A stretch of DNA of 64,000 nucleotides from Psammoneis japonica (GCA_008632985.1 QPGO01000294.1:1-64000); one strand, 5' to 3'. Numbered from the stretch's first letter, positions 1-64,000 are shown. Numbers and translations are program-made. Notes: generated by a model from the sequence alone, not told the origin.

Positions 1-1303
1 CAGCACACAGCCAATGTCATTGCCGAGAACACGTTTGCTCAGGTTGACAGCAAAGGCAACCAGTGTTCTGTCTTGCATGAGATGCAGGACCACGAGAGGT
101 GCGACGATGCAGTGTCAATTGCTGACGGTGCCACACGAACCGCTGACGTGAAGGAGAAGAAGAAGATCACAATGAAAGGGTGGAAGTCATTGGTTGGATG
201 GAAGGATGGCAGCTCATCTGGGGTCAAACTCAAAGATCTGAAGGACTCCAGCCCCATTGAAGTTGCTGAGCATGCTGTTGCGAACAGGTTGACGGAGGAA
301 CCTGCTTTTGCTTGGTGGGTCACACATGTCCCACGCAAATGGAATCGCATCATGTCCAAGGTTAAGAAGAAGCACTGGCGCACGACTCACAAGTTTGGGA
401 TCTGATTGCCCAAGTCAGCGGAGGATGCTCTGTGGACAGACCAGGAAACGGGGACAGATCATTGGGCTCGTGCAATCAACAAGGAGATGGCAAAGGCAAA
501 GGTGGCATGGCGCGAGCACGAGGCTGAAACCCCTCAAGTCATCCGGGAAGGCAAGAGTGCAACTTTGCGTGGTTGTCAGGAGATCAGGTGCCACATGGCA
601 TTCGATGTTAAAATGGATTTCACCAGAAAGGCAAGGTTTGCAGCTGGCGGACACACGACAGAGGCTCCGGCATCGACCACTTGTTCTGGCATGGTTTCCA
701 GAGACAGTGTGCAACTTGGACCCTTGTTGGCAGCTTTGAATGGGATCGACATTGCAGCGATTGATCTGGAGAATGCTTGTCTCAATGCACCGTGCGCAGA
801 GAAGATGTGGTTTGAAGGTGGAAAGGAATGCGGCGAGTGTGAAGGAAAGGTGCTTGTCGTCACTTGGGCGTTGTGTGGCTCAAAGAGCTCGGGACACTCG
901 TGGAGGTCTGCACTGTCATCGGTCTTGCGTGACTTGGGCTTTGAATTGACGAGAGCGGATCCAGACGTCTGCTTGCGCGCGGCGACTCGTGAGGACGGGC
1001 ATGAGCATTGTGAAATGCTTTTGGTTTGTGTCGATGACACACTGATCATTTCCCATCAGGGGAAGTCCATTGTTGCTGCAACAGGTGAACACTGTGCCGT
1101 GAAGCCCGGCAGTGAAGGAGAACCGGAAGTTTGTCTTGGGGCTAATGTTGAGAGGGTTCAGACTCAGGATGGGCGCACGATTTGGGCAAGTTCACCGAGA
1201 TCATGTGTCAAATCAGCGATTGAGACTGTGGAAGGCCTGTTGGATGAAGACGGCAATGGAGAGGTTCTGAAGAACAGTGCAAAGGATCCGCCACCCGCAA
1301 AAT
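1..1303 (+). mobile_element. Degenerate Ty1/copia (CoDi-type) pol fragment (post-integrase region and RT); upstream member of a 1429-bp-offset tandem duplication
   Basis: Copia RT motifs FDVKMDFTRKARFAAGGH, DLENA[C]LNA, AL[C]GSKSSG and [C]VDD. Premature TGA at 403-405 (CGA at 1832-1834 in the next copy). Breaks off at ~1303 and restarts at an upstream pol position. Confidence 0.93.
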
Positions 1304-3498
1304 GAGTGACGTGGTGTTGTGACGAAACCTGCAAGAGGACAGGATGGGCGTCCAGTTGGGACTCGGCCTCAAAACCCATTGTTTGACACTCGCGAATGCG
1401 AAGTGGAATGTGCCAACGGAACCACAGATGAGCACACAGCCAACGTCATTGCCGAGAACATGTTTGCTCAGGTTGACAGCAAAGGCAACCAGTGTTCTGT
1501 CTTGCATGAGATGCAGGACCACAAGAGGAGCGACGATGCAGTGTCAATTGCTGACGGTGCCGCACGAACCGCTGACGTGAAGGAGAAGAAGAAGATCACA
1601 ACGAAAGGGTGGAAGTCATTGGTTGGATGGAAGGATGGCAGCTCATCTGGGGTCAAACTCAAAGATCTGAAGGACTCCAGCCCCATTGAAGTTGCTGAGC
1701 ATGCTGTTGCGAACAGGTTGACGGAGGAACCTGCTTTTGCTTGGTGGGTCACACATGTCCCACGCAAACGGAATCGCATCATGTCCAAGGTTAAGAAGAA
1801 GCACTGGCGCACGACTCACAAGTTTGGGATCCGATTGCCCAAGTCAGCGGAGGACGCTCTGTGGACAGACCAGGAAACGGGGACAGATCATTGGGCTCGT
1901 GCAATCAACAAGGAGATGGCAAAGGCAAAGGTGGCATGGCGCGAGCACGAGGCTGAAACCCCTCAAGTCATCCGGGAAGGCAAGAGTGCAACTTTGCGTG
2001 GTTGTCAGGAGATCAGGTGCCACATGGCATTTGATGTTAAAATGGATTTCACCAGAAAGGCAAGGTTTGCAGCTGGCGGACACACGACAGAGGCTCCGGC
2101 ATCGATCACTTGTTCTGGCGTGGTTTCCAGAGACAGTGTGCGACTTGGACCCTTGTTGGCAGCTTTGAATGGGATCGACATTGCAGCGATTGATCTGGAG
2201 AATGCTTGTCTCAATGCACCGTGTGCAGAGAAGATGTGGTTTGAAGGCGGAAAGGAATGCGGCAAGTGTGAAGGAAAGGTGCTTGTCGTCACTTGGGCGT
2301 TGTGTGGCTCAAAGAGCTCGGGACACTCGTGGAGGTCTGCACTGTCATCGGCCTCACGTGACTTGGGCTTCGAATTGACGAGAGCAGATCCAGACGTCTG
2401 CTTGCGTGCGGCGACTCGTGAGGACGGGCATGAGCATTGTGAAATGCTTTTGGTTTGTGTCGATGACACACTGATCATTTCCCATCAGGGGAAGTCCATT
2501 GTTGCTGCAACAGGTGAACACTGTGCCGTGAAGCCCGGCAGTGAAGGAGAACCGGAAGTTTGTCTTGGGGCTAACGTTGAGAGGGTTTAGACTCAGGATG
2601 GGCGCACGATTTGGGCAAGTTCACCAAGATCATGTGTCAAATCGGCGATTGAGACTGTGGAAGGCCTGTTGGATGAAGACGGCAATGGAGAGGTTCTGAA
2701 GAACAGTGCAAAGGATCCGCCACCCCCAAAATGCAAACCAGAGCTGGATGTGACGGACGAGTTGGGCCCCGACTTGGTGGACAGGTGTTTGCAGCTGACA
2801 GGGATTTGTCGTTGGGCGATCGAGTTGGGTCGCATCGACATCTTGCATGAGGTCTCAATCTTGTCTCAATGTCAAGCCAACCCAAGGAAAGGACACCTTG
2901 AGGCATTGTGTCATGTGTTTGCACACATGAAGAAGCACCAGAATGTTGGGCGCATCGGATTTGATCCAAAGGAACCGGTGATTGATGAATCTATTTTTAA
3001 TTTGAACACAGACTGGACCAAGTTTTACGGGGACGTCGAGGAGGAACTGCCACCACGGGCCGAAACCCCGTGGCAACCCGGCAAATGTCTGCGCATTTGT
3101 TGACGCTAACCATGCAGGGAATGTTGTCACTCGCAGGTCGCATGGTGGAATTCTGACATTCGTCAACAATGCACCAGTGGTGTGGTTCAGCAAACATCAG
3201 AGTGCGGCAGAATCAGCAATGTTTGGGAGTGAGTTGGTTGCAATGCGGATTTGCAAGGAATTGGTTGTTGCTTTGCGTCACAAGCTTCGCATGTGGTGTT
3301 GTGAAGAATGTAGAGGCACCCGAGTTGGTTTTGCACAAGAAGCACAATGCCATCAACTGCCATGTTGTGCGAGAGGTGGTCGCAGTGGGAATCATTCGTG
3401 TTGGCAAGGAGGATGTGGAAACAAACTTGGCAGATCAACCCATGAAGGTGGTTGCAGGAGAGCGGCGATGGAAGCTTTGCTCGTGTGTCTTTTGGTGA
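1304..3498 (+). mobile_element. Degenerate Ty1/copia (CoDi-type) pol 3' part: RT and RNase H
   Basis: ORF 1319-2590 has the RT motifs, with a TAG at 2588-2590 and a frameshift near 3060. RNase H motifs are FVDANHAG, FGSELVA, KKHNAIN[C]H and NLAD. Ends CVFW* at 3498. Confidence 0.93.
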
Positions 3499-3661
3499 TG
3501 TCCCGACACCAAGGCCAGGCACCTGTGGCTTGCACCCACATGTCTTGGCCTCCCAAGCCAGCATGTCTGGTGGTTTAATTTGGGTCTTGTGGTTTGCCTC
3601 TCTGTGAGAGGATGTTACATGTTTGGACGAATCGGCATCGTCATTGCCGTTTCGCAGGGAC

Positions 3662-3840
3662 TGAGTAAAAATCTGGATGGAGAGCTGTGCTGCAACTGGT
3701 GATTGGTTGACATGTGTGAGTCGAGTGGTGCTGCAGCGACCCGCTCACAATCTAATCAGGTTCAGGTTCGCATTGACAGTGTTGCTGCTTTCCATCAGAC
3801 GCAAGGTGTCGCACTTGTTCTTTCGTTGCATTGAGATTTG
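3662..3840 (+). repeat. 3' LTR of the copia element (~180 bp)
   Basis: Starts TGAGTAAAAATCTGGATGG just after a short purine-rich GCAGGGAC. Aligns with 34846-35012 and 54744-54919, which precede gag. Confidence 0.8.
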
Positions 3841-3989
3841 TTCGGTTGTTCAAATCTTCGTTGTGCAACGAACAGATTTCTTGCTTGCACCGTGCTCAGA
3901 TGAAAGGAAAGGAATTCGGAGTCTAAAATTTTAAAAATCAAAAACTCCCTCCGACGCGATCAAGAGGTCGCATGAGACGACGTGCGACC

Positions 3990-5303
3990 ATGATGGGAAT
4001 GAGAGAGTTTGACATCATTGTGTGCGGTGCAACAGGCTTCACGGGTGAGAAGGTTGCCAAGCACATCAAAGAATCCACTGAGCACAAACTAGCGATCTCT
4101 GGGCATTCTCGAGAAAAAGTTGGAGCAAGTCGCAACAGCGATTGGCCTCTCGCAAGACGCTGTCTTGGTGGCTCCAGTCGATGATCTGGATGCCCTGAAG
4201 GGTGCATTGGCAAAGGTTCGGGTTGTTCTTTCTTGTGCTGGACTGCATCGTCACGTTGGAATTGAAGTTGGCCATGCTGCAGTCGAAACCAAGATGGATT
4301 GCCTTGGTTTGCGTGGGGAACCGCAGTTCTTCTGTTGGTTCAGCACGATGGTGCTGCTCGTGCAGCTGATGCACTGATTGTGAGTGCACGCGCATTTGAT
4401 TGTGTTCCAGCAGAGCTCTCTGCTGCCTTTGCTGCAAGAGAGCTCAGTCGTTGCTTTTGTTCTGCGCCATTGACTGGAATCGAAATTGTTCATGCTTTTC
4501 ATGGTGTTGCGTGTGGAAACCCAACAACATTTCATGCAGCTGTCTGTGGCTTTCATGCTGCCATGAATGGCGAGCTCAAGCAAAGTCGTCAAGCTGTTGA
4601 AGAAAAATTCAAAGTGCAGAAACCACCTCCAAGACCAGAGGACTGGCCGAAGGCACCAGCAGCACCTGATGCCATCCCACAGCATCACGAAGCCACCAAC
4701 ACCTGCACTGTCAACTTCATGGGTGCAGATGCTGCAGCAATGTTGGCCTCCGACAGGTGCCTTCGTTTGCGGATTCCGTCCCAACATGCGGACACACCTC
4801 AACCTCGGCTAGCCATGAGCATTGGACAAAAGGAGAAATCACACGCACTGCAGCTGTTGGCATTTGGGTCTGCATTTTCGTTTCTAGCCAGATTTGGCTG
4901 GGGCTGCAAGGTTCTTCATGACCATCCAGAATCATTTTCGGGTGGTTTCTTCCGACAAGGGGGGCCAACAGAAGAGGAGCTTGCCAGCGCACACTTTTCA
5001 ACTTTCACTGCAGCACGCGGCAGGAGCGAAAAGGACTGTGTCACAGTCAAGCACCATGGACCAGAGCCGGGTTGCGCAGCAACTCCACAAATGATTGTCG
5101 CACTGGCAACAACTTTGCCAGAGCATCGTGACAAGCTTTCCTTCAAGGGCGGCATTGTGCCACCGGCAGCTTTGTTTGGTCAATGTGATGAAGTCTGCCG
5201 GCAGCTGAGGAAGCATGCTGTCAAGTTTGAGACTGCAGAGAGCTCGGCAGAACCTTCCGTCACAAGTGATGCCGCCAGGATTTGCTCGAATGCAGACATC
5301 TAG
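3990..5303 (+). pseudogene. Saccharopine dehydrogenase-like oxidoreductase (SCCPDH family) pseudogene
   Basis: Rossmann motif FDIIV[C]GATGFTG, plus VLSCAG, GEPQF, AFDCVPAEL and GPEPG[C]AATP, spread over three frames. Tyr positions are replaced by Cys/His. Confidence 0.85.
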
Positions 5304-8300
5304 CCTCAGTTCTACAGCCCTCATCTGCTCACCGCGTGCGATGAAACTTGCATCAGTTTCGCTCTCCGATGCCGATGTGCAACACTTTGTCACGAAAGCA
5401 AAGACACGTGCAATGCCAGCTGTTGACTGGACACAAGTTGATCATCAAGACGACAAGCTGAGAGAACCAGTCGTTTTTGCACCTGCACCAGTGGCCTGCC
5501 CCAAAACCGACGGAGCAGTTTGATGACTGAAAAAGGCAACGGTTTGGCTCTGCAGCAAATGAGTGTCACTGTTGAGGAGTCTTGGATGTTTGATTCGTGG
5601 GAACTTTTCACAAGCGTCGTCAGGAGGCGCAACGTGATTTGAAAGAATGCGAGAATCGACAATGTGCTTCTTCGAATCAGGCAGAGTCTGCGCAGAGCTG
5701 TTGCTGCTTGAGGTCATCAGATTCAAGCTGACCTGCATGAAAGGACAAAAGAAGGGTGTCTTTGAGGTTGCGGACCGTGGCGGATGGGTGGCGAGAGACG
5801 ACATTTAAGAAACATTCAGTTGCCTCCCTCAGCATGAGATTGATCTCACTCCATGCAGGGGGGCATGGCATTTGGACAATCCAAACATGCCGGTTTGTGC
5901 CGTCAAGAAATGTTCGCGTTGTGGTGCAAAAATGCTTGGGACAAAGAGATTTGGTCTGAAAATGAAGACAGTGGCAAGCGAAATTGACTTGCATGAATCT
6001 CACGAACAAGACTTGCCGCAGCGTCAGTCGTCGTCGCGGTGCTGTTTTCTTTGGTGGGGAATTTCAGCCACTGCCTCCCACAACACCTGCATCATTGCCT
6101 CCGTGTTCCCGTCTGCATCCGATGCACGTGTTGGGCTGCAAGGAAAACCCATTGAAAATGTCTTTGAGAGCAGTTGTTCCACAAGGCAACGGAACTCAAG
6201 CGACTCAATCACACCCATGCATCCAAAGTGGACAACACAACATTGCGGAATTCGATGAAGGCAAGGAAGATGTGAAGGAGTCGCTTCAAGATGCTGTTGC
6301 AAACACCAAGCAAGTCAAGAATGGAAGTGGTTTCAAAAGTTGGGAAAGCTTGAAGATGCACTTTGCATTGGCGCGAACTGACTTGTTGCTGCAGTGCTGT
6401 TCCACTGGACCTTTCCGCCTCCTTGGCAGCAGCACGCGATTTCTTTGTTGTTCGTGACACTCTCCACTGCAGGGCCACTGGAGCCAGCTCTAGCTGCTAG
6501 AGCAGAGGACAGAGCCACAACACTGCTTCTAACACCATCCACTCTAGAGAGATCGCCTTCAAGAGATTCGTGTTCTCAGCCCCAAAATGAAATGATCTCA
6601 TTGGGCAAACGACGTCCATGCGGCTCTCAAACTGACATCATCGCTGATGCATTTGCTTGAAGCACATGAACAAATGTGGAAGATTGACGGCCAAAGCTAA
6701 ACACATGACAGTGGAGAGGCATTGCATGTGGAGAGGCAACGACGGTCGCGCCTTCGTAGTGTTTTGGAACCTGGTGCATCGGATGGACTCTGTTGGGACT
6801 GACGCAGGTTCTTGTGGCAAACTTGAGCATTGCTGCGAATGCAAACCGATCACGCTACAGACGAGGAATGTGTGGGAGGCAAACTGCACTCATTGTCCTC
6901 TCTTGCTTTGGCATCAAAAGCTGTTCTCGACGTTGGAAATCTTGGTTTCTCTGTCACTTGAAGGGCACACAAGGTCAGAATGCGAGCGCTTGAAACTGAC
7001 AAAAGCAAATGCCATGTCTTGGAGAGCGCACTCGGGTCGACCATGTGAAATGTAAAACCACTGTTGCATGAATCTCGATGGCTCTTGAGGGGCTGTTTCA
7101 GCTGCCAGAGCAACTGTCAAGGCTTGGAGAGTCGCCTCGTCTGCAGGAGTGCCGCGAGAGAGATGTTTCTAATGGGGAACACGTCAAGCGCAACAACCGC
7201 CAACAGTCAGAGACACCTGCATCATAAAAACTTCGTCTCATGTTTGGATTTGATGAAAATTGGATGTCCGCATCATGTTCCGAGTGACTCGAATGAGAGA
7301 GGCTTGGAGGACTCGAGAAAAAACGCTTGTCGACCCGACTCGACACTTTGACATGTTGCAAACGACATGGGATGACCACAATGGCGAGCCTTGAGAATGC
7401 CACAGTCCTGTCATTGTCGCCAGCAATCGTAGATGGGACTGCAAGTGACATGTGGATTCCCCTTTTTGCATTTCTTCATTCATGTTCATCTGTCAAAAAA
7501 CAGAAATCAAAATCTGAAAAAGAGTGTGAGTTACAAAGTGTGACTCAGCGAGACGGTCACAATCGCAAACGCAACAAAACAGATCTTCAAACGCTGTGGG
7601 ACATGGAGAATGCAGCTGACATGACGGGCCGGCGACCCACAGGAGTGTCAAGCCTGTGGGGGTTCAGACATGAGATGCTCAATGAGCAACTCAAGCAGTC
7701 TGAACCACCTTACAACCTTCACAAAAAAGGCTGCCCTTCGGGGCATCAAGCACACCATCTTGGTCCACGACGTTGACAGGCGTTCAGCGTGAATTCAAAG
7801 AAAGAAAGCAGAGGCTGGCCCTCCTCTGACAGAGCCAGTGCATCGCAGTGCACTCGAAAGCACACTGGCTGGCTCTCACCACTGCCGCATTGGACATTTA
7901 CAAGCATTCAGCACACACGCAAGAAGCGAGTTTGCTGGCAATCGTGGTGTGTCTCCGTCGGAACCACGGACTGCTTTGACAGGCAATCGTCATTTCGCCT
8001 CGAACCGACTTCCAAAGATGTGCGCAATCAAATGCACAGAGGAAAACCATCAAGGACCCAAGCCTTCAGGTCCACATGGCAATCGTGTGCGGACGACATT
8101 CAATGACTCAACTCCAGCAGATCTAACTCGCAACGAGAACAAGACAATTGACTCGCCGTCGGCAGAGAACTGATGCAACCATGACAATCAAGAGAGCAAT
8201 GTGTTTCAAAAGGTCGAATGGCGTTTTTTGTGTGCTCCGTGCAACAATGAGGAAAGTGATTCAGATTTCACTTGTCCCGAGCCTTGACGCTTGACGTTTC

Positions 8301-8480
8301 GAATTTTTTTGAAATTGTGGCGGGAAAACCAACGGCTTCTTTTGCTGTCACATTTTGTGTGAAACTCATGCGAACACCGATGACGTCTGCCAAACGGAGA
8401 ATCTTTTGAGCTCCGAACTCCAAGATTTCCTTCCATCTGCCACATCCGCAGCACATGCCACATCAAGCATCACATTCATT

Positions 8481-8501
8481 TTGTTGTTGCAGTTGTTGTT
8501 G

Positions 8502-8553
<52 letters not shown>

Positions 8554-8566
8554 AGTTGCAGTTGCA
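8481..8566. repeat. (CTG/TTG)n trinucleotide microsatellite
   Basis: Directly visible; the paralog at 44704-44792 has a different CTG/TTG arrangement. Confidence 0.95.
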
Positions 8567-8699
8567 TTCGTCCTTGTCTGTTTTTCAATGACATTGAACC
8601 CAACACTCAACAGCATGACGACTGGAGCCCCCAAAGACAGCGGGCTGTCTCCAACAAAAGAAAAGGAGGAGGAAAATGATTCGCGAAGGCTTCCCCGCG

Positions 8700-9520
8700 T
8701 TGCTTCGTGCCGACGGCATGTGGTTTGGGTCCTCTGATTGAGGGTGCTGTCAGCAGCTGGTTGTCATTCGACCTCAGTTTGAGGGTGCCGCAGCTTTGAA
8801 CTGTGAGGATGATTGGGATTGGCGACACGGACAAGACCTGCAAGGCATTCTTGGAGCTTGCAGAATTGCCGCTCGGCATGCTGCGGGTTGGCCCCGACGC
8901 ATGGAGCCAGGCATTCACGCCGGACCAGGATGGCATTTCGAATGATCTCCTTTCCTTGTGCTGTCGACTCTGCCCGCAGTGTCACAAACGACAAAAATCT
9001 CATTCGCCTTGCCGCAGAAGCGTTGCTGCATTGTTTTGCCTTGTGCGCAGAGATTGGTGCTCCTGGGACACTTCCAGAAATTCTACGGGGGCATTTTCAA
9101 GTCAAGAGTGCACCGGACCGCTTTGCCCAGAAGGACCTTGTAACTGCAGGTTTCATCAAAATTGGACGCTTGAGCCATTCGCAGTGGTGGGCGGATGAAC
9201 GAGGACACCAGAGGCCAGTCGAGCTTCCCACTGTTCCACTGAAAAACATGGTTGAGGTGCTGACCAAGTGGGACACCCATGCAAGCAACCCCACAGTCAT
9301 TGATCAACGTGGTGAAAGCTTGCTCTTTGATGGATCTGATGAAACCCTTTGCGAGTGCCGTCACCGAAGCGTGTTGACCTGTTCCGAAACAATGTCTCGA
9401 CCACTGATGTTTCTGGCACCCTTCATTGGTGAAGAAACAGCGCTGAACCCACTCTGGTTGCTTGTGACCAAGGTGCAAAAAAGAACAAGCGAGGCCGAGG
9501 AACATTGGCAATGGCGCGGC
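8700..9520 (+). pseudogene. AhpC/TSA (peroxiredoxin-like, algal/cyanobacterial type) pseudogene
   Basis: Motifs IGIGD, CAEIGAPGTLPEILRG[H]F, G[H]QRPVEL..V.LKNMVEVLTKWDT[H], QRG..LLFD and MSRPL.FL; frameshifted. Boundaries approximate. Confidence 0.7.
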
Positions 9521-10129
9521 ATTGCACAAGCGTGGGTTAAAGTGAGTGCGTCGTTTTGCCAAATTTAGAATCTTGCGATCTCTGAACGCCAAGATTTCCT
9601 TCCCTCCGACACCACCACGCTTCACTGACAGAGCCTGCGACACTTCACATGCATGCCACATGATGCTGCCACATGCAACATCATGCTCAACAGTGACAAC
9701 AACAGGAACAAACAACGCAACAACAATGTCGTCGCTTCCAAGAGCAGAAGAAGCAATGCGGTGTGTTCGTACGACAAACAAACGCCACCACACAAATGAA
9801 GAGACAAGTCGAGTGCTGATGCTGCAGACTGTGTTCAGAAGTGGCAGCATTGACGATGAAGCCACCCTCGTTGACCTGAAGTCTTGACTGGACTCGACTC
9901 CGCTTGCTCTCGTGGTGGCTGTGACATCCTTTGGTGGACCCAGATGCAAATCTCTCCTCAACGATTTGCCTTTGCTCAAAAAGACTACGCCAGCGGTTCT
10001 GCTTGCTGTGGTTCTGCCCCGTCAAACCCCAAATTTTGATTTTACATGCCGATCGAATTGGGCTTGAATGAGATGCCGTGTCTGTCGCAAGCATTCGCGC
10101 CAATCTTCAAGAGATCAGCAGCAGTGATG

Positions 10130-10790
10130 GAGGGGGCTGCTGTCCCTTTTAGCACCAGCAACACCAAGAATCCTTCCGTGTGCTGTCCTGACAGTTCATT
10201 GGATCCCAATTCCTCTCCCACCAACCCCTTGGATGTGCTGCAATTGGTGCAACAATGGGCCACACGCTGAAACAAATCACCAAGGCGTCAACGGATTCCA
10301 ATTTGGGTCTGGGTTGCGGCTTGCGGCAATGCCACGAGCTTTGCCAGCCTGCTTGAGAATGAGGCAGTTCTCTGTTTGTGAAGTGGCGCTGGAGTCTGTT
10401 GCTTTTTGGCTGCCGACGTTGTGGGACCGTCCTGCACTTTCATTGAAGTGTCGACATGAAACCCCACATGTTTTACAAGTCACGAACTCACGCCAACAAG
10501 AAGAAGACGACCAATGTCGAATTCTGTTTGGGAGCGATGGAACACCTTCCCGCAGCCGACGGCCCGGTGGATTGTGCTGTGAGCAATTGCGTCATCGATC
10601 TCAATCCTGACAAGCCGCAGGTGTCTCGAGAAATGCACCACATTCTCAAACGGGGTGGTCGCATTGCCGTGTCAGACATCGTGATTCGCCCTGAAAAGAT
10701 CACACCCAACACCCCATTTTGCTTCAAGACGGCCAAAGCGATGACATGCATTCTCCCCGCAACTTGTGCGGACGAAGCCTTTCGATCCAT
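10130..10790 (+). pseudogene. Arsenite methyltransferase (ArsM/AS3MT-like) pseudogene
   Basis: SNLGLGCG near 10300, decayed SAM motif VLCL*SGAGVCCFLAA.VVGP, and NVEF.LG..EHLP.AD..VDC.VSNCVI.L.PDKPQV.RE...ILK.GGRIAVSDIV. Confidence 0.85.
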
Positions 10791-10859
10791 GTGGGCAGAG
10801 TTTGAATGGGAAATGAGGTGACCATTCCAACGTTGGTTCCCAACACTCGGCAGCTCGTG

Positions 10860-49737: not shown

Positions 49738-49950
49738 TGCGATTCGTTTGTCGCAATGAAAAACATTGATGGCACGACAACAATGATTTTGCAACACTCA
49801 CACGAGTCTTGTCAGTGTTGCAAAACATTAGAATTTGAGCAAATCTGTGCTTTTGGTGGTGAAAAACCGTTCGCAAGTCAGAGACCGCGCAAAAATCGCG
49901 CAAATGTCGTTTTTGTGCACGATTTGGGTCACGTGCGGCTGGAACACGTC
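49738..49950 (+). mobile_element. MITE family B right-hand fragment after a single-N scaffold join
   Basis: Matches ~36505-36719 and ends CTGGAACACGTC; N at 49737. Confidence 0.8.
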
Positions 49951-52900: not shown

Positions 52901-55900
52901 CAGCAACTCCAGCTGCTGTGGTGTGCATTCAGAGTCAAAAGAGCAGACAGCTGGGGGGGGGGATTGTCAAAAATCTAACTGCAGCAGGGTCTCCACATCT
53001 TTCAGCTTGATCTGTGGACAGCCAATGGCCTCCCCCTGCAGAAGTCCCCTTCACACACTTTTGCAGGATTGGATGCTGGTGTGCTGATGGCTCAGATTTG
53101 CTCAAGCACAGGCTTTTCCCCAGAGAGCCACCTGCTGCCAGCATTGTCACATTTTGAAGAGTTTTTGCCACACCATTGATTGAGTGCCAAAAGAGTGAAG
53201 AGGAAACAAAAATCTCCAATGCCAAGGATCAGGCAACACATTTTCAGGCACCCCCCTGGCAGATGACTTGATGCACCCAGACATGACTTGCCCATGAGAT
53301 TGTTCATTTTGCTGCAAAGAGGCCCCACATGCACCATTGCTCAGCAAGCCATGCCCTCTGCTTGCAAAAGAAAAATGTCCCTGCACACACCAGTGCAAAA
53401 GCAAATGTGGTGGATTTGAAACACAGGTGTGAACAGCACACAATCAGGCAAAGGCAATTCATTGAAGAAGCCAACCGTTTTTTTGTTCTGCAGCTTGTCA
53501 AGACTCACAATCAAGGCCTCTGTTCTTGGCACAATTGCCGCACCAAACACAGAGACAGGACAGCCCCAATTGTCAGCATGCAGAGCTGCACTCACCTGCA
53601 TTGGAGCCACATGTTCTCCCACACAACAATGAAAAAAATTGAGAAAGACAGTCACCATGTGCTTCTTTGAGAATGTGCTGACATGGCTTTGTGAACAAGC
53701 CACTGCAGGTTGTGCTCAGAAAAACACCCCTCTGCCTGACAGATGGTGGCTTGCATTTGTCACAGATCAAGCCAAAAATGGAAGTCCACAACTTGGACAT
53801 CATGCACCACTTTGCCAGCTCTGCATCCTTGCATTTTTAGAGCAAACAGTGTTGCAGCATGGCCAGGGTTGGTGGGGTTTCAAGTTTGGGTCAGGGGACA
53901 GAGAGTGGAAATTTTCTGGCAAAACTTGAAGCATGTGTGTGACCAAGCAAGATTCCATCTAAAAAGTTAGTCTGTGACATGACCAAGTTAATCTGCTGTG
54001 AGGAGCCAGCACCCAAAATGCTTGCCACAGGTGGCATGGTGCCAACAAGAACAACAGCGCCATCAACACAGGCTCCCATGCTAAGAAATGTGTTGTTTCT
54101 TTTGCTCAGAGCACTGCTCCAATGTTTTCCATCACTCCCATTGATTGCACAACAACTCCTTTGAAACACAAGAGCTTCCTTCCTCCAAAATGATGCAGCC
54201 ACCTGAGTTGATGCACTCATGTCCAGTGCCATGGTTGCTGCAAGCGCCTGCCCCTCCAATGACTCCCTGGTGTCATGTCCCATTGACTGAATGACCATGT
54301 GGCTCTTCTGAAACACAACAGCTTCTGCCTCTGAAACAACATTGCAGCTGCCAGAACTGAAGCACTCATGCCTCCCACAGATGCCAGCACAAGCCCACCC
54401 CTCCAATGTCTTGCAGCCATGGTGTTGAAAACATTCCAAGAAAGACACAAAACATGCATTGCAAGGAGCAAGAACCTCATGCTGAGCTCCAGCCATCAAG
54501 CTGTCTTCATCCATCTTGACATTCAAAGTCCAGCCAGTGCTGCATGCTGTGAGCTGAGTGAACCACTGTTGCTGGTGCTGGAAGCACCAGAGACAAACGA
54601 GCTGAAACACAGTCACATGTGCTGGCACCATTTCACCTGAAAAAAGGACAGAGATTGTGCATGAGCATGCCCCACTGGCAATCAACAGACTGCACCCAAG
54701 ACTCAACTGGCAGCTGGAACGTCATGATTCAGCAGCGTGGTTGTGAGCAAATCTGGATGGAGAGCCATGTCACAATTGGTGATTGGTTGACACATGTGAG
54801 TCGAGTGGTGCTGCAGCAACCCGCTCACAATCCAATCAGGTTTGGGCTGCATTGACAGTGTTGCCACTTTCCATTGGACGCAAGGTGTCGCACTTGTTCT
54901 TTCGTTGCATCAAGATTTATTGCTTTGTCAGAGCCAAGACGAAAAAGACAGAACAAAATGGTTTCAAACACAACTCGTCATGGACGATTGTTTGTTGTGT
55001 TGTTTGCATGGAATGTGCAGCTGTAGAAACGGTGCTGAACTGTGCGCGATGCGTCAGAATTCGGATTGATGCGCATGAAGATGCGTCTCGTGTCGCTTGT
55101 CATGATGTCCACAAAACAGCTTGCAATGGCAACACTTGCAATGACAGTCACTGTCCTCACATGTGTGATGGGTGTGAGGGGACTGCGGCATTGGGCGACA
55201 TGCCCGAGCCTGTGCTCAATGATGTCGGTTGACATGAACGACACAGGACTGATCACCCTGACGTCGGGTGGCTGTGTGAACCCATCATCACAACACAGAG
55301 AAAGTGCAGCTGCCGTGACCATGCAGACTCACAGCTGTGTGTCCCCAATGCGGAGGATGGCAGCAGTGGCAGCACCAGCAGCAGCACTTGTGGCATTGGC
55401 CGCGGCAGCTGACATTGACGCAGTTTTGCAAGTTTGTGGTGTTGCTGACCAGAACGCAAGGGCAAGGTTGGTTTTCTACGAAGGGTTCATGACTTTGGAA
55501 AACATCGCAGTGATGGAGAGTGACCATGATGTGGAAGATGTGGTGCAGAGGGCATCTTGTCACACGGTGGCCGACGGACGCGTGACTCTGGGACTGTTCA
55601 GATCAAGAACTTGCAGGCGCTAGCATGGTGGTGCCAGGATTTGCTTGAATGGAACCAGCCATTGGTTGCGGCAGACTTTAATGCAGCAGCCATGGCTGCG
55701 GCCCGGGATGGCAGGCGCATCAAAAAGGAGCGCACGGACTTGGACGCGTCGGCAAGCGGCCTCGTGAAGTTTGAGCCTGATGATTTTGATGTGTGCGAAG
55801 ACGCTTTCTTGAATCTCCTGGCACAGAAGTTTGGCGTGTTGAAAGATCCCCTTTGCCATGTGGCAAGGATGATGCCAGCTCCGGCTGCATTCGCGGACAC

Positions 55901-56134
55901 CCAACAACAGCGCATGCACCAGACACCTTTGAATGGTGCCGCATGTGACGAGGACAACCGCAGCGTTTGTCATGTGTTGAAGGAACACTTGGTCGACATG
56001 GCAGGATGGGCATGGATCAAACCGTTTGACGCAACAGAAGATGGGCGTGGAGCATTCAACGCATGGGTTGACCATTGCAACGGACAGGGCGAGTTGAGCA
56101 AGCGCATTCATCTGGCTGTGGCAACTGTTGAAAT

Positions 56135-56320
56135 GACGTGTTCCAGTCCCAGGTGACACACAAAATGACAATCGATTTTGAATGTAAATTGTGCATCTCT
56201 CAGTGCATGAAGCACTTTCACACAAAATGCTCAGGAGGATTGGCTTTTACAGGCATCTGGAGCATGAACAATTGTGAAGAATTAAACAGTTTTTTGTGGG
56301 GTGTTGAATTCCTCATGGGA
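56135..56320 (+). mobile_element. MITE family B left part in gag (same site as 36154), running into the assembly gap
   Basis: GACGTGTTCCAGTCCCAGGTGAC start at the same gag position. Confidence 0.88.
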
Positions 56321-56520
56321 NNNNNNNNNNNNNNNNNNNNNNNNNNNNNNNNNNNNNNNNNNNNNNNNNNNNNNNNNNNNNNNNNNNNNNNNNNNNNNNN
56401 NNNNNNNNNNNNNNNNNNNNNNNNNNNNNNNNNNNNNNNNNNNNNNNNNNNNNNNNNNNNNNNNNNNNNNNNNNNNNNNNNNNNNNNNNNNNNNNNNNNN
56501 NNNNNNNNNNNNNNNNNNNN
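56321..56520. other. Assembly gap (200 N)
   Basis: Run of N. Confidence 1.
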
Positions 56521-59500
56521 AAGCGCAAGATTTCCAAATGAGCCATTGTGGTGGCGGTGGCCACGGCTTTTGTTGAGGTCGTGGTTGCGGAGGAAGATTT
56601 GGATGTGGGGGCGGACGTGGACGTGGTGGTGGACGCCAAGGTGGAGGGGGCGACCACACTGCTGTGCTCAATGGAGCAGATGTGTCCGACCCCACAAGGA
56701 GCTTTAGCGCTCAAGAATGGGAAAAGTTGCAGTGCAATGGAGGCATGAGCTGCATGTTCCAGGCTCGCGAACGAATGGGTCATGGACGCGGTGGTGGCCG
56801 TGGGTCTCCCGCAGGTCGCGATGGGGGCGGCAGGCATGCAGCTGAAGCCCGAGTCCATCAAGATGGCCAAGACCAAACCCAACAACAGGATCAGGAGCAA
56901 AAGAGCAGCGGGCGTGGTCGCGGCGCTGACCGTGATCGCGGTGGATGCAATGGACGCACCTTTGGTCGGGGAGCCCATGATGGTTCCACCTGACTCCTTG
57001 GGGTGGCAACAGCTGCTGGAGCATTGGCGCATTTGGCACACTTGTCGTTTTTGCTTGTGCCACTCTTCTTGCTCTTGACTCGACCCCACCCAATGTCTCG
57101 TTTCAAAGGAAAGGCGACAAAGAGACACATTGCTGTAACGTCAAAACGTGTGATCCGATCGATGAGTTCTGCACAGATGACAAATTTGATGACACCTGGG
57201 TTCATTGCTCGAAATGAATGTGACACTCACGTGGACACTTGTTGCACTGGAGCGAACTGGAAACTCATGGAGTTGACGAATGAAGTGTGCAAAGTGCACC
57301 CATTTCTGGACTCTTGTGAGCCGATCAAACAGATTCCTGTGGCACGTTGTTGCACCGCACGGACAGATCCGGAAACGACTCGTGAACATTTGCTGGTTGG
57401 TGATCAAATGCTCTGGTTTGGAACCGACACGGAACATTCACTTTTGAATCCCAACCAACTCCGTGCGCACAACATGCCCGCACACGACAACCCTTGCAAC
57501 ACTCGAAACGGATTTGGCATTGAAGCTGACGAAGCTTTCATCCCTTTCAATGCCACGGGGACAATTGTGTCTTTCAAGTCTCGTGTTCCAACGGATTGGG
57601 AAGTGCAGAACTCACCGGTCATGCTGTTGACAGGTGACACATGGGATCCAGCACAGACAGACATGGGCTCACCGGAGCGCACTGGAGCGCAGGCGGAGAT
57701 GCGTGCCATTCGATCATTGAACTCTGGCATGTGACAAGAAACGCTGGGGCAAGGTCAAAATGCAACTGTCATCAATGTCCCCCATCTGTCAACTTCAATT
57801 GTTTTGGGACAGACTTGTCAGCTCAGTTGATGTGGCTTGCACATGTCGCGACGACGTGGACAAGAGGCAGATGGCAGTCAAAGATTTGCACAGCAAGGAT
57901 CGACACTCAAAAGTTGACGCTGAAGAGTTGGCTCGGAAATGGAGTGTCGGCTTAGAAACGGCAAAAGACACTCTCAACGTAACTGCTCAGCGCGGTGTGC
58001 GAACGGCGACCCAGCCGATGTCACGAAGAGTGAGGGTGGATCATCTTGACTTGCATCGGAAGCGTCTGAAAGGAACATGATTTGTGGATGCTTTGACATC
58101 CAAGGTGAAGTCCTCACTCGGCAACACGTGTGCCAATGTTTGCACTCAGGGCAAATTCGTGAAGGTTGTGCCGATGACCGCCAGGTCGGAGGCAGGTTTG
58201 TCTCTTGTTGAATTTACAGACGACGTGGGTGCACCAGAACATCTTGTGTCAGATGGGGCAGGAGAGTTCACCGGAAGGAGCACCGAGTTTGTGAGACACG
58301 CACGACGCATGAGGATGCAATTGAGAACATCAGAACAGGGCCGAAAGAATCAGAATCAGGCAGCGGAGCACGAAATTGGTTTCTTGGCCAAGCGCTGGCG
58401 GCTGCAGATGACAAAGAAGAAGGTGCCAAAGCGATCATGGGACTTCTGTCTTGTTTGCAAGTCGGAACTGGTGTCGCGCATGGCAAGAGGCAGAGACAAG
58501 AGGACTGGACATGAAGAGGTCACTGGACAGACACCGGAAATGGGCGAGTGTTTGGACTTTGGTTTCTGTGACATGGTGTGGTGGTGGGACAGGCCCAACA
58601 AGCCAAATGCAACAGACGATCCTCGAAGGCTTGGACGGTGGCTTGGCATCTCTCACAAAGTTGGCTCGGACATGCGCCATTGGATCATTGCGGAAAGCGG
58701 GAAGATTGTCTCCAAAACATCCGTTGAGCACGTGACACAGGCTGACATGGTGCAACCGGACATTTGTGTCAAGGTCGACAACTTTAATGAGCAGCTGGAG
58801 AAGCGATTGGATGATGCCAACTTTGTCTCAAAGGGTGATGAAGCAGCACCCCCATTTGTGTTGGACGATCTTGCAATTGACGGCAACTCTGGTGTGGAAT
58901 GTGAGGGCAGTGTCACGCCAGAGGACAAGGAACATGGCGACATGCCATTGCCCGACGAGCAACCAGACGACAATGATGAGCAGGCAATCGATCAACACCT
59001 GGGAATGGAACTTGTGTTTGACATCGGAACCGACGGCAAGCAACGTGGTGTTGCAACGAAACCTGCAAGAGGACAGGATGGGCGTCCAGTTGGGACTCGG
59101 CATCAAAACCCATTGTTTGACACTCGCGAGTGCGAAGTGGAATGTGCCGACGGAACCACAGATGAGCACACAGCCAATGTCATTGCCGAGAACATGTTTG
59201 CTCAGGTTGACAGCAAAGGCAACCAGTGTTCTGTCTTGCACGAGATGCAGGACCACAAGAGGAGTGACGATGCAGTGTCAATTGCTGACGGTGCCGTGCG
59301 AACCGCTGACGGGAAGGAGAAGAAGAAGATCACAACAAAAGGGTGGAAGTCATTGGTCGGATGGAAGGATGGCAGCTCATCTTGGGTCAAACTCAAAGAT
59401 CTGAAGGACTCCAACCCCATTGAAGTTGCTGAGCATGCTGTTGCGAACAGGTTGACGGAGGAACCTGCTTTTGCTTGGTGGGTCACACATGTCCTGCGCA

Positions 59501-59919
59501 AACGGAATCGCATTGTGTCCAAGGTTAAGAAGAAGCACTGGTGCATGACTCACAAGTTTGGGGTCTGATTGCCCAAGTCAACGGAGGATGCTCTGCGGAT
59601 AGACCAGGAAATGGGGACAGATCATTGGGCTCGTGCAATCAACAAGGAGATGGCAAAGGTGAAGGTGGCATGGCGCGAGCACGAGGCTGAAACCCCTCAA
59701 GTCGTCCGGGAAGGCAAGAGTGCAACTTTGCGTGGTTGCAAGGAGATCAGGTGCCACATGGCATTCGATGTTAAAATGGATTTCACCAGAAAGGCAAGGT
59801 TTGCAGCTGGCGGACACACGACAGAGGCTCCGGCATCGATCACTTGTTCTGGCATGGTTTCCAGAGACAGTGTGCGACTTGGATTCTTGTTGGCAGCTTT
59901 GAATGGGATCGACATTGCA

Positions 59920-60143
59920 GCGATTGTTCTGGAGAGTGCTTGTCTCAATGCACCGTGCGCAGAGAAGATGTGGTTTGAAGGCGGAAAGGAATGCAGCGAG
60001 TGTGAAGGAAAGGTGCTTGTTGTCACTTGGGCGATTGATCTGGAGAATGCTTGTCTCAATGCACCGTGCGCAGAGAAGATGTGGTTTGAAGGCGGAAAGG
60101 AATGCAGCGAGTGTGAAGGAAAGGTGCTTGTCATCACTTGGGC
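59920..60143 (+). repeat. 111-bp in-frame tandem duplication inside RT
   Basis: 37-aa block AI.LE.ACLNAPCAEKMW...VTW occurs twice; GCG microhomology at the junction. Confidence 0.92.
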
Positions 60144-60855
60144 GTTGTGTGGCTTAAAGAGCTCGGGACACTCGTGGAGGTCTGCACTGTCATCGGTCTT
60201 GCGTGACTTGGGCTTCGAATTGACGAGAGTGGATCCGGATGTCCACTTGCGTGCGGCGACTCGTGAGGACGGGCATGAGCATTGTGAAATGCTTTTGGTT
60301 CATGTCGATGACACACTGATCATTTCCCATCAGGGGAAGTCCATTGTTGCTGCAACAGGTGAACACTGTGCCGTGAAGCCCGGCAGTGAAGGAGAACCAG
60401 AAGTTTGTCTTGGGGCCAACGTTGAGAGGGTTCAGACTCAGGATGGGCGCACGATTTGGGCAAGTTCACCGAGATCACATGTTAAATCGGCGATTGAGAC
60501 TGTGGAAGGCCTGTTGGATGAAGACGGCAATGGAGAGGTTCTGAAGAACAGTGCAAAGGATCCACCACCCCCAAAATGCAAACCAGAGCTGGACGTGACG
60601 GACGAGTTGGGCCCCGACTTGGTGGACAGGTGTTTGCAGCTGACAGGGATTTGTCGTTGGGCGATCAAGTTGGGTCGCATCGACATCTTGCATGAGGTCT
60701 CAATCTCATCTCAATGTCAAGCCAACCCGAGGAAAGGACACCTTGAGGCATTGTGTCATGTGTTTGCGCACATGAAGAAGCACCAGAATGTTGGGCGCAT
60801 CGGATTTGATCCAAAGGAACCGGTGATTGATGAATCCATTTTTAATTCAAATGCA

Positions 60856-63800
60856 ATTAATTTCACTCTGTGTGGGGGGGCATGGCATTTGGACAATCCA
60901 AACATGCCGGTTTGTGCCGTCAAGAAATGTTCGCGTTGTGGTGCAAAAACACTTGGGACGAAGAGATTTTGTCTGAAAATGAAGACAGTGGCAAGCAAAA
61001 TTGACTTGCACGAATCTCACAAACAAGACTTGCCTCTGTGTCAGTCACGTCGCGGTGCTGTTTTCTTTGGTGGGGAATTTCAGCTGCTGCCTCCCGCAAC
61101 ACCTGCGTTGTTGCCTCCGTTTTCCCGTCTGTGTCCAATGCACGTGTTGGGCCACATGGAAAACCCATTGAAAATGTCTTTGAGAGCAGTTTTTCTACAA
61201 GGCAACGGAACTCAAGCGACTCAATCATGCCCATGCATCCAAAGTGGACAACACAACATTGCGGAATTCGATGAAGGCAAGGAAGATGTGAAGGAGTTGC
61301 TTCAAGATGCTGTTGCAAACACCAAGCAAGTCAAGAATGGAAGCAGTTTCAAAAGTTGGGAAAGCTTGAAGATGCGCTTTGCATTGGCACGAACCGACTT
61401 GTTGCTGCAGCGCTGTTCCACTGGACCTTTCTGCCTCCTTGGCAACAGCACGCGATTTCTTTGTCATGCGCGACACTCTCTGCTGCAGCTGCCAGAGCTG
61501 GCTCTAGCTGCTGGAGCAGAGGACAGAGCTGCAACACTGCTTCTAACACTGTCTGCTCTAGAGAGATCGCCTTCGAGAGATTCGTGTTCTCAGCCCCGAA
61601 ATGAAATGATCTGATTGGGCAAACAACGTCCGTGCGGCTCTCAAACTGACATCATTGCTGATGCATTTGCTTGAAGCGCGTGAACAAACATGGAAGATTG
61701 ACGGCCAAAGCCAAACACATGACAGTGGACAGGCATTGCATGTGGAGAGGCAACGACGGTCGCGCCTTTGCAGTGTTTTGGAACCTGGTGTGTCGGACAA
61801 ATGTTCGCATCGTGGTGCAAAAACACTCGGGACGAAGAGATTTGGTCTGAAAATGAAGACAGTGGTGAGCGAAATTGACTTGTGTGAATCTCACGAACAA
61901 GACTTGCTGCTGCATCAGTCGTCGTCGCGGTGCTGTTTTCTTTGGTGGGGAATTTCAGCTGCTGCCTCCCGCAACACCTGCATTGTTGCCTCCGTTTTCC
62001 CGTCTGCATCCGATGCACGTGTCAGGCCACAAGGAAAACCCATTGAAAATGTCTTTGAGAGCAGTTTTTCTACAAGGCAACGGAACTTAAGCGACCCAAT
62101 CATGCCCATGCATCCAAAGTGGACAGTGCAACATTGCGGAATTCGATGAAGGCAAGGAAGATGTGAAGGAGTCGCTTCAAGATGCTGTTGCAAACACCAA
62201 GCAAGTCAAGAATGGAAGCAGTTTCAAAAGTTGGGAAAGCTTGAAGATGCGCTTCGCATTGGCGCGAACCGACTTGTTGCTGCAGCGCTGTTCCACTGGA
62301 CCTTTCCGCCTCCTTGGCAACAGCGTGCGATTTCTTTGTCATGCGCGACACTCTCTGCTGCAGCCACCAGAGCTGGCTCTAGCTGCTAGAGCAGAGGACA
62401 GAGCTGCAACACTGCTTCTAACGCTGTCCACTCTAGAGAGATCGCCTTCGAGAGATTCGCATTCTCAGTCCCGAAATGAAATAATTTGATTGGGTGAACG
62501 ACGTCCATGTGGCTCTCAAACTGATGTCATCGCTGATGCATTTGCTTGAAGCGCATGAATGAATGTGGAAGATTGACGGCCAAAGCCAAACACATGATGG
62601 TGGACAGGCATTGCATGTGGAGAGGCAACAATGGTCACGCCTTCACAGTGTTTTGGAACCTGGTGCATCGGACAGACTCTGTCAGGACTGACACAGGTTC
62701 TTGTGGCAAACTTGGGCATTGCTGCGAGTGCAAACCGATCACGCTACAGACGAGGAATGCACGGGAGGCAAACTGCACTCATTGTCCTCTCTTGCTTTGG
62801 CATCGAAAGCTGTTCTTGACGTTGGAAATCTTGGTTTCTCTGTCACTTGAAGGGCACACAAGGTCAGAATGCGAGTGCTTGAAACTGATGAAAGCAAATG
62901 CTGTGTCTTGGAGAGCGCACTCGGATCGACTGTGTGAAACGTAAAACCACTGTTGCACGAATCTCGATGGCTCTTGAGGGGCTGTTTCAGCTGCCAGAAC
63001 AACTGTCAAGGCTTGGAGAATTGCCTCATCTGCAGAAGCACCGCAAGAGAGATGTTTCTAATGGGGAACACGTCAAGCGCAACAACCGCCAACAGTCAGA
63101 GACGCCTGCATCATAAAAACTTCGTCTCATGTTTGGATTTGATGAAAATCACATGTCTGCATCATGTTCCGAGCAACTCGAATGAGAGAGGCTTGGAGGA
63201 CTCGAGAAAAAACGCTTGTCGACCCGACTCGACGCTTTGACATGTTGCAAACGACATGGGATGACCACAATGGTGAGCCTTGAGAATGCCGCAGTCCTGT
63301 CATTGTCGCCAGCAATCGCAGATGGGGCTGCAAAACAATGTGTAGATTCCCCTTGTTGCATTTCTTCATTCATGTTCATCTGTCAAAAAATGGAAATCAA
63401 AATCTGAAAAAAGAGTGTGAGTTACAAAGCATGACTCAGCAAGACGGTCACAATCGCAAACTCAACAAAACAGATCTTCAAACGCTGTGGGACGTGGAGA
63501 ATGTGGCTGATGCAATGGGCCGGCGACCCACAGGAGCATTGAGCCTGTGGGGGTTCAGACATGAGATGCTCAATGAGCAACTCAAGCGGTCTGAACCACC
63601 TTGCAACCTTCACGAAAAAGGCTGCCCTTTGGGGCATCAAGCACACCGTCTTGGTCCACGACGTCGACAGGCGTTCAGCGTGCATTCAAAGAAAGAAAGC
63701 AGAGGCTGGCCCTCCTCTGATGGAGCCAATGCATCACAGTGCACTCAAAAGCACACTGGCTGGCTCTCACCACTGCCGCATTGGACGTTTGCAAGCATTC

Positions 63801-64000
63801 AGTGCACACGCAAGAAGCGAGTTTGCTGGCAATCGTGGTGCATCTCCGTCGGAACCACGGACTGCTTTGACAGGCAATCGTCATTTCACCTCAAACCGAC
63901 TTCCAAAGATGTGTGCAATCTAACGCACAGAGGAAAACCATCAAGGACCCAAGCCTTCAGGTCCACCTGGCAATCGTGTGTGGACAACATTCAATGACTT
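60856..64000 (+). repeat. Large repeat unit, copy 3 (start), with an internal 874-bp tandem duplication
   Basis: Matches ~5840-8110 and ~42060-44330. 60925-61798 is repeated at 61799-62672. Confidence 0.92.

Follow-up and report, generated by a model that had tools for sequence, protein, structure and literature searches.

Positions 1–64000 of scaffold QPGO01000294.1 (Psammoneis japonica, GCA_008632985.1), a stretch of 64,000 nt referred to here as the window, carry transposon-derived DNA from which the dinucleotide TpA has almost disappeared, together with a short island that has kept it. An initial annotation, made from the sequence alone, had proposed that repeated DNA in the window has undergone TpA to TpG/CpA hypermutation. 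The loss of TpA with a gain of TpG and CpA is confirmed as real. The transposon DNA has probably been rewritten in place, with the same signature as that reported for the alga Bigelowiella natans, and an enzyme directed to silent or foreign chromatin is proposed as the agent. The features on which this reading depends are listed below (o/e, observed/expected ratio; ORF, open reading frame; LINE, long interspersed nuclear element).

1–13700, no strand: left block of TpA-depleted transposon DNA (TA o/e 0.04–0.12 in 2-kb bins).
13719–18306, no strand: spared island of 4.6 kb with normal TpA (41 TA per kb), its edges sharp within about 250–300 bp; read depth about 31–33 over 15338–19339.
18300–64000, no strand: right block of TpA-depleted transposon DNA (2-kb bins, and TA count pooled with the left block).
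1310–2590, plus strand: Copia polymerase fragment, hypermutated, with no Tyr (RVT_2; tandem partner at 406–1305, also RVT_2).
5665–13033, plus strand: 7.4-kb composite unit with a Ulp1 protease domain (Peptidase_C48) at 10806–11246; paralogue of 41880–49254, 94.4% identity.
24882–26822, plus strand: LINE-like ORF with no Tyr (weak Exo_endo_phos match at 24882–26819, E 0.0015, below the Pfam cut-off).
31330–35012, plus strand: unit paralogous to 51249–54909, 96.4% identity, with TpA and CpG both nearly gone (alignment, 2-kb bins).
39676–41901, plus strand: Copia polymerase ORF, hypermutated, one Tyr in 742 positions as translated (Pfam RVT_2).
41880–49254, plus strand: second copy of the 7.4-kb unit, with the Ulp1 domain at 47031–47660; paralogue of 5665–13033.
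58081–61614, plus strand: third Copia copy, in two ORFs (58081–59568 and 59569–61614) with no Tyr; RVT_2 at 59569–61614.

A second copy exists within the window, at 92–98% identity, for 71% of its length. The tandem Copia copies 1431–2733 and 2–1304 are 97.9% identical; segments 1619–3289, 5665–13033 and 20821–22920 are colinear with 40189–41861, 41880–49254 and 49252–51263, and 31330–41580 matches 51249–60855. Since this colinearity extends through fragments of different elements, the copies arose by segmental duplication of a composite unit some 20 kb long, rather than by separate transpositions. The first unit copy (1619–22920) holds later insertions at 3290–5664 and 13034–20820, as well as a miniature inverted-repeat transposable element (MITE). 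No terminal inverted repeats flank the 13034–20820 insert. Read-derived contigs join position 13030 straight to 20821, and copies without this 7.8-kb insert are therefore present elsewhere in the genome. Within the repeat array the scaffold contains a single N at 49737 and 200 N at 56321–56520, where copy boundaries are uncertain. The window has no tRNA or Rfam matches.

Long terminal repeat, LINE, DNA-transposon and host-gene sequences had all been described as affected in the initial annotation. For the Copia elements (RVT_2) this stands; for LINEs it stands only by way of the sub-threshold Exo_endo_phos match. For DNA transposons, the Mutator-like match is sub-threshold and lies inside the spared island, not in depleted DNA. 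Damage to host genes was not confirmed, the Ulp1 protease being the only other domain found.

Over the whole window, o/e is 0.13 for TA, 1.57 for TG, 1.55 for CA and 0.68 for CG. TA o/e lies between 0.04 and 0.16 in 30 of the 32 2-kb bins, and the remaining two bins (14001–18000) give 0.58 and 0.64. When the window is split at the observed borders, the depleted zone comprises 1–13700 and 18300–64000 (59,200 nt) and contains 312 TA against 3602 expected (o/e 0.09), with 5941 TG against 3718 expected (1.60), 5768 CA against 3668 expected (1.57) and 2521 CG against 3786 expected. These counts bear out the earlier statement that TpA is nearly absent from the repeated DNA and TG/CA abundant in it. 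The corresponding ratios for the island (13751–18150) are 0.59 for TA, 1.13 for TG, 1.23 for CA and 0.94 for CG, with a GC content of 46.4%. GC content in the depleted zone (50.6%) is 4.2 points above that of the island, which is the size of the TA dinucleotide loss (about 4 points). Five patches, namely the island and four short stretches, hold 230 of the 501 TA in the window, and the other 271 are distributed over 58,220 bp.

As in B. natans-type hypermutation, the A:T>G:C change is restricted to TpA: in the depleted zone AA (1.19), TT (1.26) and AT (0.89) occur at ordinary frequencies. The presence of both products, TpG and CpA, likewise corresponds to the either-strand action of B. natans-type hypermutation. 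In depleted DNA the triplets TAA and TAG number 2.3 and 1.5 per kb, against 9.8 and 8.7 per kb in the island, a four- to six-fold reduction, and because these stops are scarce, long meaningless ORFs abound in the depleted DNA. Four long ORFs had been singled out in the initial annotation as free of Tyr, and each does contain none (424, 635, 487 and 495 aa as translated, stop counted).

The direction of change can be read from the Copia ORF 39676–41901, which was aligned with its 40 best matches, using columns with at least 80% agreement among the relatives. Of 18 columns with conserved Tyr, nine read Cys in the window, five His, one Tyr and three another residue, and none reads Arg; at a 60% threshold, 22 Tyr columns give 11 Cys, 6 His, 1 Tyr and 4 others. 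Conserved Ile is replaced by Thr in five and by Met in one of 13 columns, and conserved Val by Ala in four of 23. Conserved Lys is kept in 18 of 20 columns and has nowhere become Arg or Glu, and A>G-type changes affect one of 13 Asn columns. Judged from these codons, TAY has been converted to TGY or CAY, ATA to ACA and GTA to GCA, while adenines outside TpA were spared. The Tyr to Cys or His replacements reported in conserved motifs are seen in the same translation as NACLNA, VLCG, HVDD and CLG. ORFs in un-hit DNA keep their Tyr residues (13 of 515 and 27 of 706). A double conversion of TA to CG was considered and rejected, there being no TA-versus-CG difference between the two 7.4-kb copies and no Tyr replaced by Arg.

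Comparison of paralogues places most of the change after duplication. The 24 alignments between paralogues that reach 300 nt or more cover 33,677 nt, with some regions counted in several pairs, and yield 1697 transitions against 241 transversions. The commonest double difference is TG versus CA, with 348 sites, and the next occurs 26 times. A TG-versus-CA site is produced when the two copies resolve an ancestral TpA independently, and CpG decay cannot account for so many. The 7.4-kb pair alone has 88 TG-versus-CA, 22 TA-versus-TG/CA and 129 CG-versus-TG/CA differences, 24 shared TA and no TA-versus-CG difference. Allowing for context-biased choice, we infer that about two thirds or more of its TpA sites were intact when this unit was duplicated. 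Runs tests on nine pairs were all near expectation (lowest one-sided p 0.18), and strand-coordinated, processive events were not seen in these pairs. On this comparative evidence, the target of the process was chromosomal DNA, which was hit on either strand, one site at a time and after duplication. By a rough and indirect estimate of rate, more than 85% of TA would have been lost per lineage, against about 0.4–0.7% divergence at other sites.

The TpA sites that survive in depleted DNA are distributed unevenly among sequence contexts: none are ATAT, none ATAC/GTAT, 8 ATAG, 19 ATAA, 70 CTAA/TTAG, 77 GTAA/TTAC, 60 TTAA and 35 CTAG (χ2 209 against mutated sites). A 3′ T option is present in 9% of surviving TA, compared with 47–50% in un-hit DNA. 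At 116 sites where TA is kept in one copy, the mutated adenine is followed by C 39 times and by A 31 times, whereas the corresponding numbers for the unhit alternative are 8 and 62. Only a model based on the 3′ (+1) neighbour fits both the survival and the choice data, with the rate order TAT > TAC > TAG > TAA; the ratio is estimated by the model at roughly 7:3:2:1, on a loosely constrained scale. A rule based on the 5′ (−2) neighbour fits survival equally well, but is contradicted by the choice data from the 116 sites.

A second, slower process is visible in the same DNA. The paralogous alignments contain 614 CG-versus-TG/CA differences beside 1004 shared CG sites. Where a family has three or four copies, the single deviating copy reads TG or CA in 93 cases and CG in 27. 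Correspondingly, conserved Arg residues are sometimes Gln, Trp or His, and none of 32 Cys, His, Gln or Trp columns has turned to Arg. This excess of CG>TG/CA change is that of 5-methyl-CpG decay. The fraction of CpG mutated is 0.116 after A, 0.106 after G, 0.095 after T and 0.047 after C, with no TCG bias. Ordinary CpG decay thus runs alongside the TpA process at about one-tenth of its speed; it accounts for part of the TG/CA excess and for none of the TA loss. Its presence suggests that CpG is methylated in the affected DNA and that this DNA is silent chromatin. Some sub-regions have lost nearly all of their CpG as well (CG o/e 0.28 at 18001–20000, 0.19 at 32001–34000 and 0.12 at 52001–54000, with TG/CA at 1.7–1.8); these are either older or more heavily methylated.

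The spared island separates the two depleted blocks and shows the locality of B. natans-type hypermutation, in which neighbouring DNA is unaffected, at this one site (n=1). Two ORFs stand head to head there, with a 460-bp spacer between them.

13482–15026, minus strand: Mutator-like transposase ORF, 515 aa with 13 Tyr, unaffected (Pfam PF20700, E 1.8e-5).
15487–17604, plus strand: intact orphan ORF, 706 aa with 27 Tyr, single copy, unaffected (read depth, translation).

The PF20700 match to the first ORF scores 24.4 bits, under the Pfam cut-off of 26.5, and a word-based protein search returned no homologue of it. Its last 80 or so codons extend into the depleted flank, and its summed read depth is about 100, approximately three times single-copy. 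From its TA o/e of about 0.5 and TG+CA of about 1.38 it was suspected of being half-mutated, a suspicion that was dropped when its TA contexts were found to match those of the island (41% versus 47% fast, p 0.62). The 706-aa ORF has no Pfam domain and no homologue in a word-based search of 5.8 billion proteins.

Read support comes from one sample (three runs in one study), which is probably the source of the assembly. Read-derived contigs show no difference from the window over 13586–14315, 14414–15322, 15302–20881 and three further stretches, and one contig of 4316 nt (15302–19617) crosses from the normal island into depleted DNA. Assembly error is thereby ruled out. Read depth is about 31–33, the single-copy level, over 15338–19339, about 100 over the Mutator-like gene, and from 100 to 42,890 in repeats. 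The initial annotation had named three observations that would count against it, namely TpA equally low in single-copy genes, A>G and T>C changes not enriched at TpA, and raw reads without the TG/CA bases. What was found is the opposite on each point: TpA is normal in the single-copy gene of the island, Tyr columns have become Cys or His in 14 of 18 cases while Lys has become Arg or Glu in none of 20, and the read-derived contigs match the window exactly. Its central claim, a TpA-specific A:T>G:C change on both strands, is upheld, with the change confined to transposon-derived DNA and the adjoining single-copy gene spared.

A further part of that claim was that the mutation is targeted to repeats, and this part is not supported in the form in which it was put. 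The relevant elements belong to one MITE family.

20969–21364, plus strand: young MITE, 396 bp, 15 TA kept (imperfect terminal inverted repeats, 4-bp target duplication GATG).
29614–30009, plus strand: older MITE copy with TA>TG/CA changes, 6 TA left (alignment to the MITE family).
37877–38275, minus strand: further older MITE copy, 9 TA (alignment to the MITE family).

The young MITE is missing from the paralogous empty site near 49394–49398, and therefore inserted after the duplication. The older copies have TG or CA at positions where the young one keeps TA. Summed read depth over 20674–21340, which overlaps the young MITE, is 42,890, against about 31 for single-copy DNA, and suggests that the family has roughly a thousand members. 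This MITE, more repeated than any other sequence in the window, retains 15 TA in 396 bp, whereas 18300–19339 is at single-copy depth and yet fully TpA-depleted. On the duplication trigger known from repeat-induced point mutation (RIP) the evidence points both ways: the loss post-dates duplication, which speaks for it, whereas the depleted single-copy stretch and the spared MITE, at roughly a thousand times single-copy depth, speak against it. Copy number is not the sole trigger; alone it does not predict the state of the DNA, and age, length or chromatin state fit better. If all genomic copies were compared, the MITE family would provide a ready-made clock for the hypermutation.

The phenomenon itself has been described very recently. 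TpA>TpG/CpA hypermutation was measured in mutation-accumulation lines of B. natans in a 2026 preprint by Mettrop et al. (bioRxiv 10.64898/2026.01.13.699255). Two integrated viral regions received 231 of 302 nuclear point mutations, all but one of which, 230 out of the 231, were A>G or T>C and are stated to lie at TpA. The rate was about 6e-7 per site per generation, about 1000-fold above background, and was seen in only some lines. In the B. natans genome, the authors further counted 324 TpA-poor coding sequences enriched in transposon domains and 124 clusters, each a run of three or more adjoining 1-kb windows, and they proposed an ADAT2-like DNA adenine deaminase and a defence role (10.64898/2026.01.13.699255). 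The initial annotation's remark that no such system had been described is consequently out of date. In a full-text literature search, whose coverage excluded most subscription journals, this preprint was the only description of TpA>TpG/CpA hypermutation found, and diatoms combined with TpA, RIP or hypermutation returned nothing relevant; papers on Copia elements in Bigelowiella contributed nothing further.

The window resembles the B. natans case, as far as that text describes it, in consisting almost only of A>G/T>C changes at TpA, giving TpG or CpA according to strand, locally and beside normally mutating DNA. Furthermore, the TpA-poor, CpA- and TpG-rich clusters of B. natans are enriched in transposon domains, and the affected DNA of the window is likewise transposon DNA. 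The two differ in stage: in B. natans, de novo mutations were caught in two viral inserts that are still TpA-rich (3.3% and 9.2%), whereas the window shows saturation over about 59 kb of transposon DNA. The transposon evidence from B. natans is statistical, to which the window adds the TAT > TAC > TAG > TAA rule, CpG decay and a spared young MITE; the words 'context' and 'trinucleotide' do not occur in the accessible text of the preprint (10.64898/2026.01.13.699255). What is new here is saturation on transposons, in-place action after duplication, the 3′-neighbour rule, co-occurring CpG decay and evidence against a simple copy-number trigger.

Fungal RIP, known from Neurospora and others, is similar in being an in-place, two-strand hypermutation of transposons that follows a dinucleotide rule, destroys coding capacity and leaves a sharp-bordered compositional scar. 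Its chemistry runs the other way. RIP changes C to T at CpA and so creates TpA, AT-richness and stop codons; the window shows the opposite, having lost TpA, TAA and TAG, gained 4.2 points of GC and acquired long false ORFs. ADAR hyper-editing and APOBEC action on retroelements also produce clusters of transitions in mobile elements and are used as defence. These enzymes act strand-specifically on RNA or first-strand cDNA, whereas in the window both strands and non-retroelement DNA are affected, after chromosomal duplication.

Adenine deamination to inosine by ADAT2/ADAT3 or TadA gives A>G, which is the transition seen in the window. The natural tRNA target of these enzymes has U before the edited A. 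The one eukaryotic ADAT2 with demonstrated activity on adenine in DNA is BjADAT2 of amphioxus, which serves as the cited precedent; on DNA it prefers the contexts GAA for adenine and TCG for cytosine, with hairpin loops favoured (PMC10354150). Those contexts were not found in the window, where the rule is T-A-Y and CpG decay is without TCG bias.

The sequence of events can be reconstructed as follows. The window is a transposon graveyard, in which Copia, LINE-like and Ulp1-bearing fragments and MITEs make up units of about 20 kb, and these units were multiplied by duplication of chromosomal DNA. Once duplicated, they had nearly all of their TpA converted in place to TpG or CpA, to saturation. 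Each step was an A:T>G:C transition at the adenine of 5′-TA on either strand, fastest with a 3′ T, then C, G and A. The most likely candidate enzyme is a DNA adenine deaminase, whose product inosine is read as G, and which may defend the genome by being steered to chromatin that is silenced or foreign. The best guess, in short, is deamination of adenine in DNA with silent chromatin as its target. Adenine deamination had been one of the two mechanisms offered in the initial annotation, and it is plausible.

Several points weigh against this reading. The signature would be the same whether adenine was deaminated or the thymine opposite it was damaged. The GAA and TCG contexts of BjADAT2 mismatch the window, so that context lends no support to the deaminase candidate of the preprint. 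A MITE with intact TA may mean that the process is no longer active, or else that inserts escape it while they are short or young. Changes were polarised by protein outgroups and by a majority rule among two to four mutually non-independent paralogues, and the baseline for 'normal' TpA consists of one 4.6-kb island and one unrelated metagenomic Copia contig. Finally, the reads probably come from the assembly's own sample, and so show that the bases are present in reads but provide no independent replication from a second isolate.

Among other explanations, the one that survives best, though it is unlikely, is a true analogue of RIP, in which duplicates are detected by homology, perhaps in a sexual stage, and repeats above a length threshold are mutated at TpA. 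RIP has a repeat length threshold of this kind, and the escape of a 396-bp MITE would fit one; most of the TA loss is later than the segmental duplications, and the spared gene is single copy. Older MITE copies of equal length have nevertheless been mutated, the single-copy stretch 18300–19339 is fully depleted, and the Mutator-like gene is unaffected at about three times single-copy depth. Moreover, a single-copy viral insert hypermutates in asexual B. natans lines, according to the text available (10.64898/2026.01.13.699255).

Slightly more doubtful is a lesion on thymine, whereby an enzyme of the TET/JBP type would produce 5-hydroxymethyluracil or a J-like base at the T of RTA in silent chromatin, which mispairs with G and leads to T>C. 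The signature is symmetric, and T>C at 5′-R-T-A is formally identical to A>G at T-A-Y. In the telomere repeats of trypanosomes, base J occupies a T that precedes A, and the 5-hydroxymethyluracil of dinoflagellates favours TpA. Nothing in the window favours a thymine lesion, and the full-text literature search found no paper linking 5-hydroxymethyluracil, TpA and dinoflagellates.

Error-prone repair patches at methylated repeats, made by a DNA polymerase eta-like enzyme with WA>WG errors, are improbable. This mechanism had been offered in the initial annotation, by whose unchecked account the polymerase makes A>G errors at WA with TA favoured, and the CpG decay does imply frequent T:G repair in this DNA. 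It fits poorly, since AA is undepleted (1.19) and A>G-type changes affect none of 20 Lys and one of 13 Asn columns, compared with 14 of 18 Tyr columns. A TA loss above 90%, rising to 100% at ATAT and ATAC, would also be hard to reach through patch errors.

RNA-level A-to-I editing of transposon transcripts by an ADAR-like or TAD-like enzyme, fixed by reverse transcription, has a negligible probability. In its favour, the discussion section of the preprint gives a 5′ U preference for ADAR (10.64898/2026.01.13.699255). Both strands are nevertheless affected in the Copia sense frame (Cys 9, His 5) where sense-strand editing would affect one, unclassified and Ulp1-bearing DNA is affected too, and chromosomal paralogues differ at the 348 TG-versus-CA sites. 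ADAR has a 3′ G preference, and the 3′ order in the window is T>C>G>A. Editing of transposon RNA is excluded because the action was chromosomal, two-stranded and site by site, and it is already contradicted by the strand symmetry and the post-duplication timing.

Equally remote, and already contradicted, is the absence of any special mutator, the pattern being due instead to CpG decay together with GC-biased conversion or native composition, or to an artefact of assembly or chemistry. CpG decay does take place in this DNA and contributes to TG/CA, but a CpG loss of about 1.3 points cannot yield a TA loss of 4 points, decay of about 19% of CG per lineage should give a few tens of TG-versus-CA sites rather than 348, AA, AT and TT are untouched while catalytic Tyr residues are destroyed, and exactly matching read-derived contigs cross the border to a normal island in the same scaffold.

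The host is a eukaryotic alga. The Copia ORF 39676–41901 has 1419 relatives, the best at 66% identity, and none at 70% or above in either protein collection searched, so that this genome seems to be absent from both. Of the 120 relatives listed, four carry an organism name: two come from Fragilaria crotonensis, one comes from Cyclotella cryptica, and the fourth bears the label of a Marinobacter metagenome-assembled genome. No host gene with homologues was found in the window. Since the named Copia relatives are diatom elements, the window probably represents a second algal lineage besides the chlorarachniophyte B. natans.

Similar scars occur elsewhere in public data. Four Copia relatives are Tyr-poor or Tyr-free: P0018 (one of 120 listed) and P0171, P0197 and P0164 (three of 150 listed). 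At the conserved Tyr columns P0018 has His eight times, Cys five times, Tyr twice, Phe once and gaps three times, and in all four proteins the NAYLNA, ALYGLK and YVDD motifs have Cys, His or Arg. The four belong to different families and share 37–57% identity with one another and with the Copia protein of the window; the scar is thus present in other Copia families. These proteins could come from this species or from others, and they hint that the process is widespread. Scans of viral contigs with P0018 and P0171 gave no match. A Joint Genome Institute metagenome locus (L001) with 48% identity, the unrelated Copia contig of the baseline, has normal TpA (o/e 0.85).

It is tentatively suggested, as a possibility well short of even, that a conserved defence exists in algae of the SAR group (stramenopiles, alveolates and Rhizaria), in which a chromatin-directed enzyme edits adenine, or the paired thymine, at 5′-TAY in double-stranded DNA of the chromosomes and, with CpG methylation, erases transposons and viral inserts, in Rhizaria (Bigelowiella) and in a diatom-like stramenopile. 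If so, it would constitute a natural A-to-G base editor of DNA and a functional mirror of RIP. If the host is a stramenopile, the system would span at least two major algal lineages and become a candidate general defence. The genome defences known to work by mutation are mostly based on the deamination of cytosine (RIP, APOBEC), and the adenine-directed TpA counterpart was first reported in 2026, in one alga. The window shows the end state on ordinary transposons, with more than 90% of TpA gone, Tyr codons erased, stops removed and GC raised by 4 points. The order TAT > TAC > TAG > TAA would serve as a fingerprint for testing candidate enzymes, and a natural activity of this kind on chromosomal DNA would be of interest to base editing.

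The extent of the damage is also reflected in domain searches. Pfam RVT_2 matches to the Copia ORFs of the window reach E values of only 1e-8 to 1e-10, compared with 1e-258 by direct comparison with relatives. Hypermutated elements thus escape Pfam, so that transposon annotation would under-call them and gene callers would over-call their stop-free ORFs.

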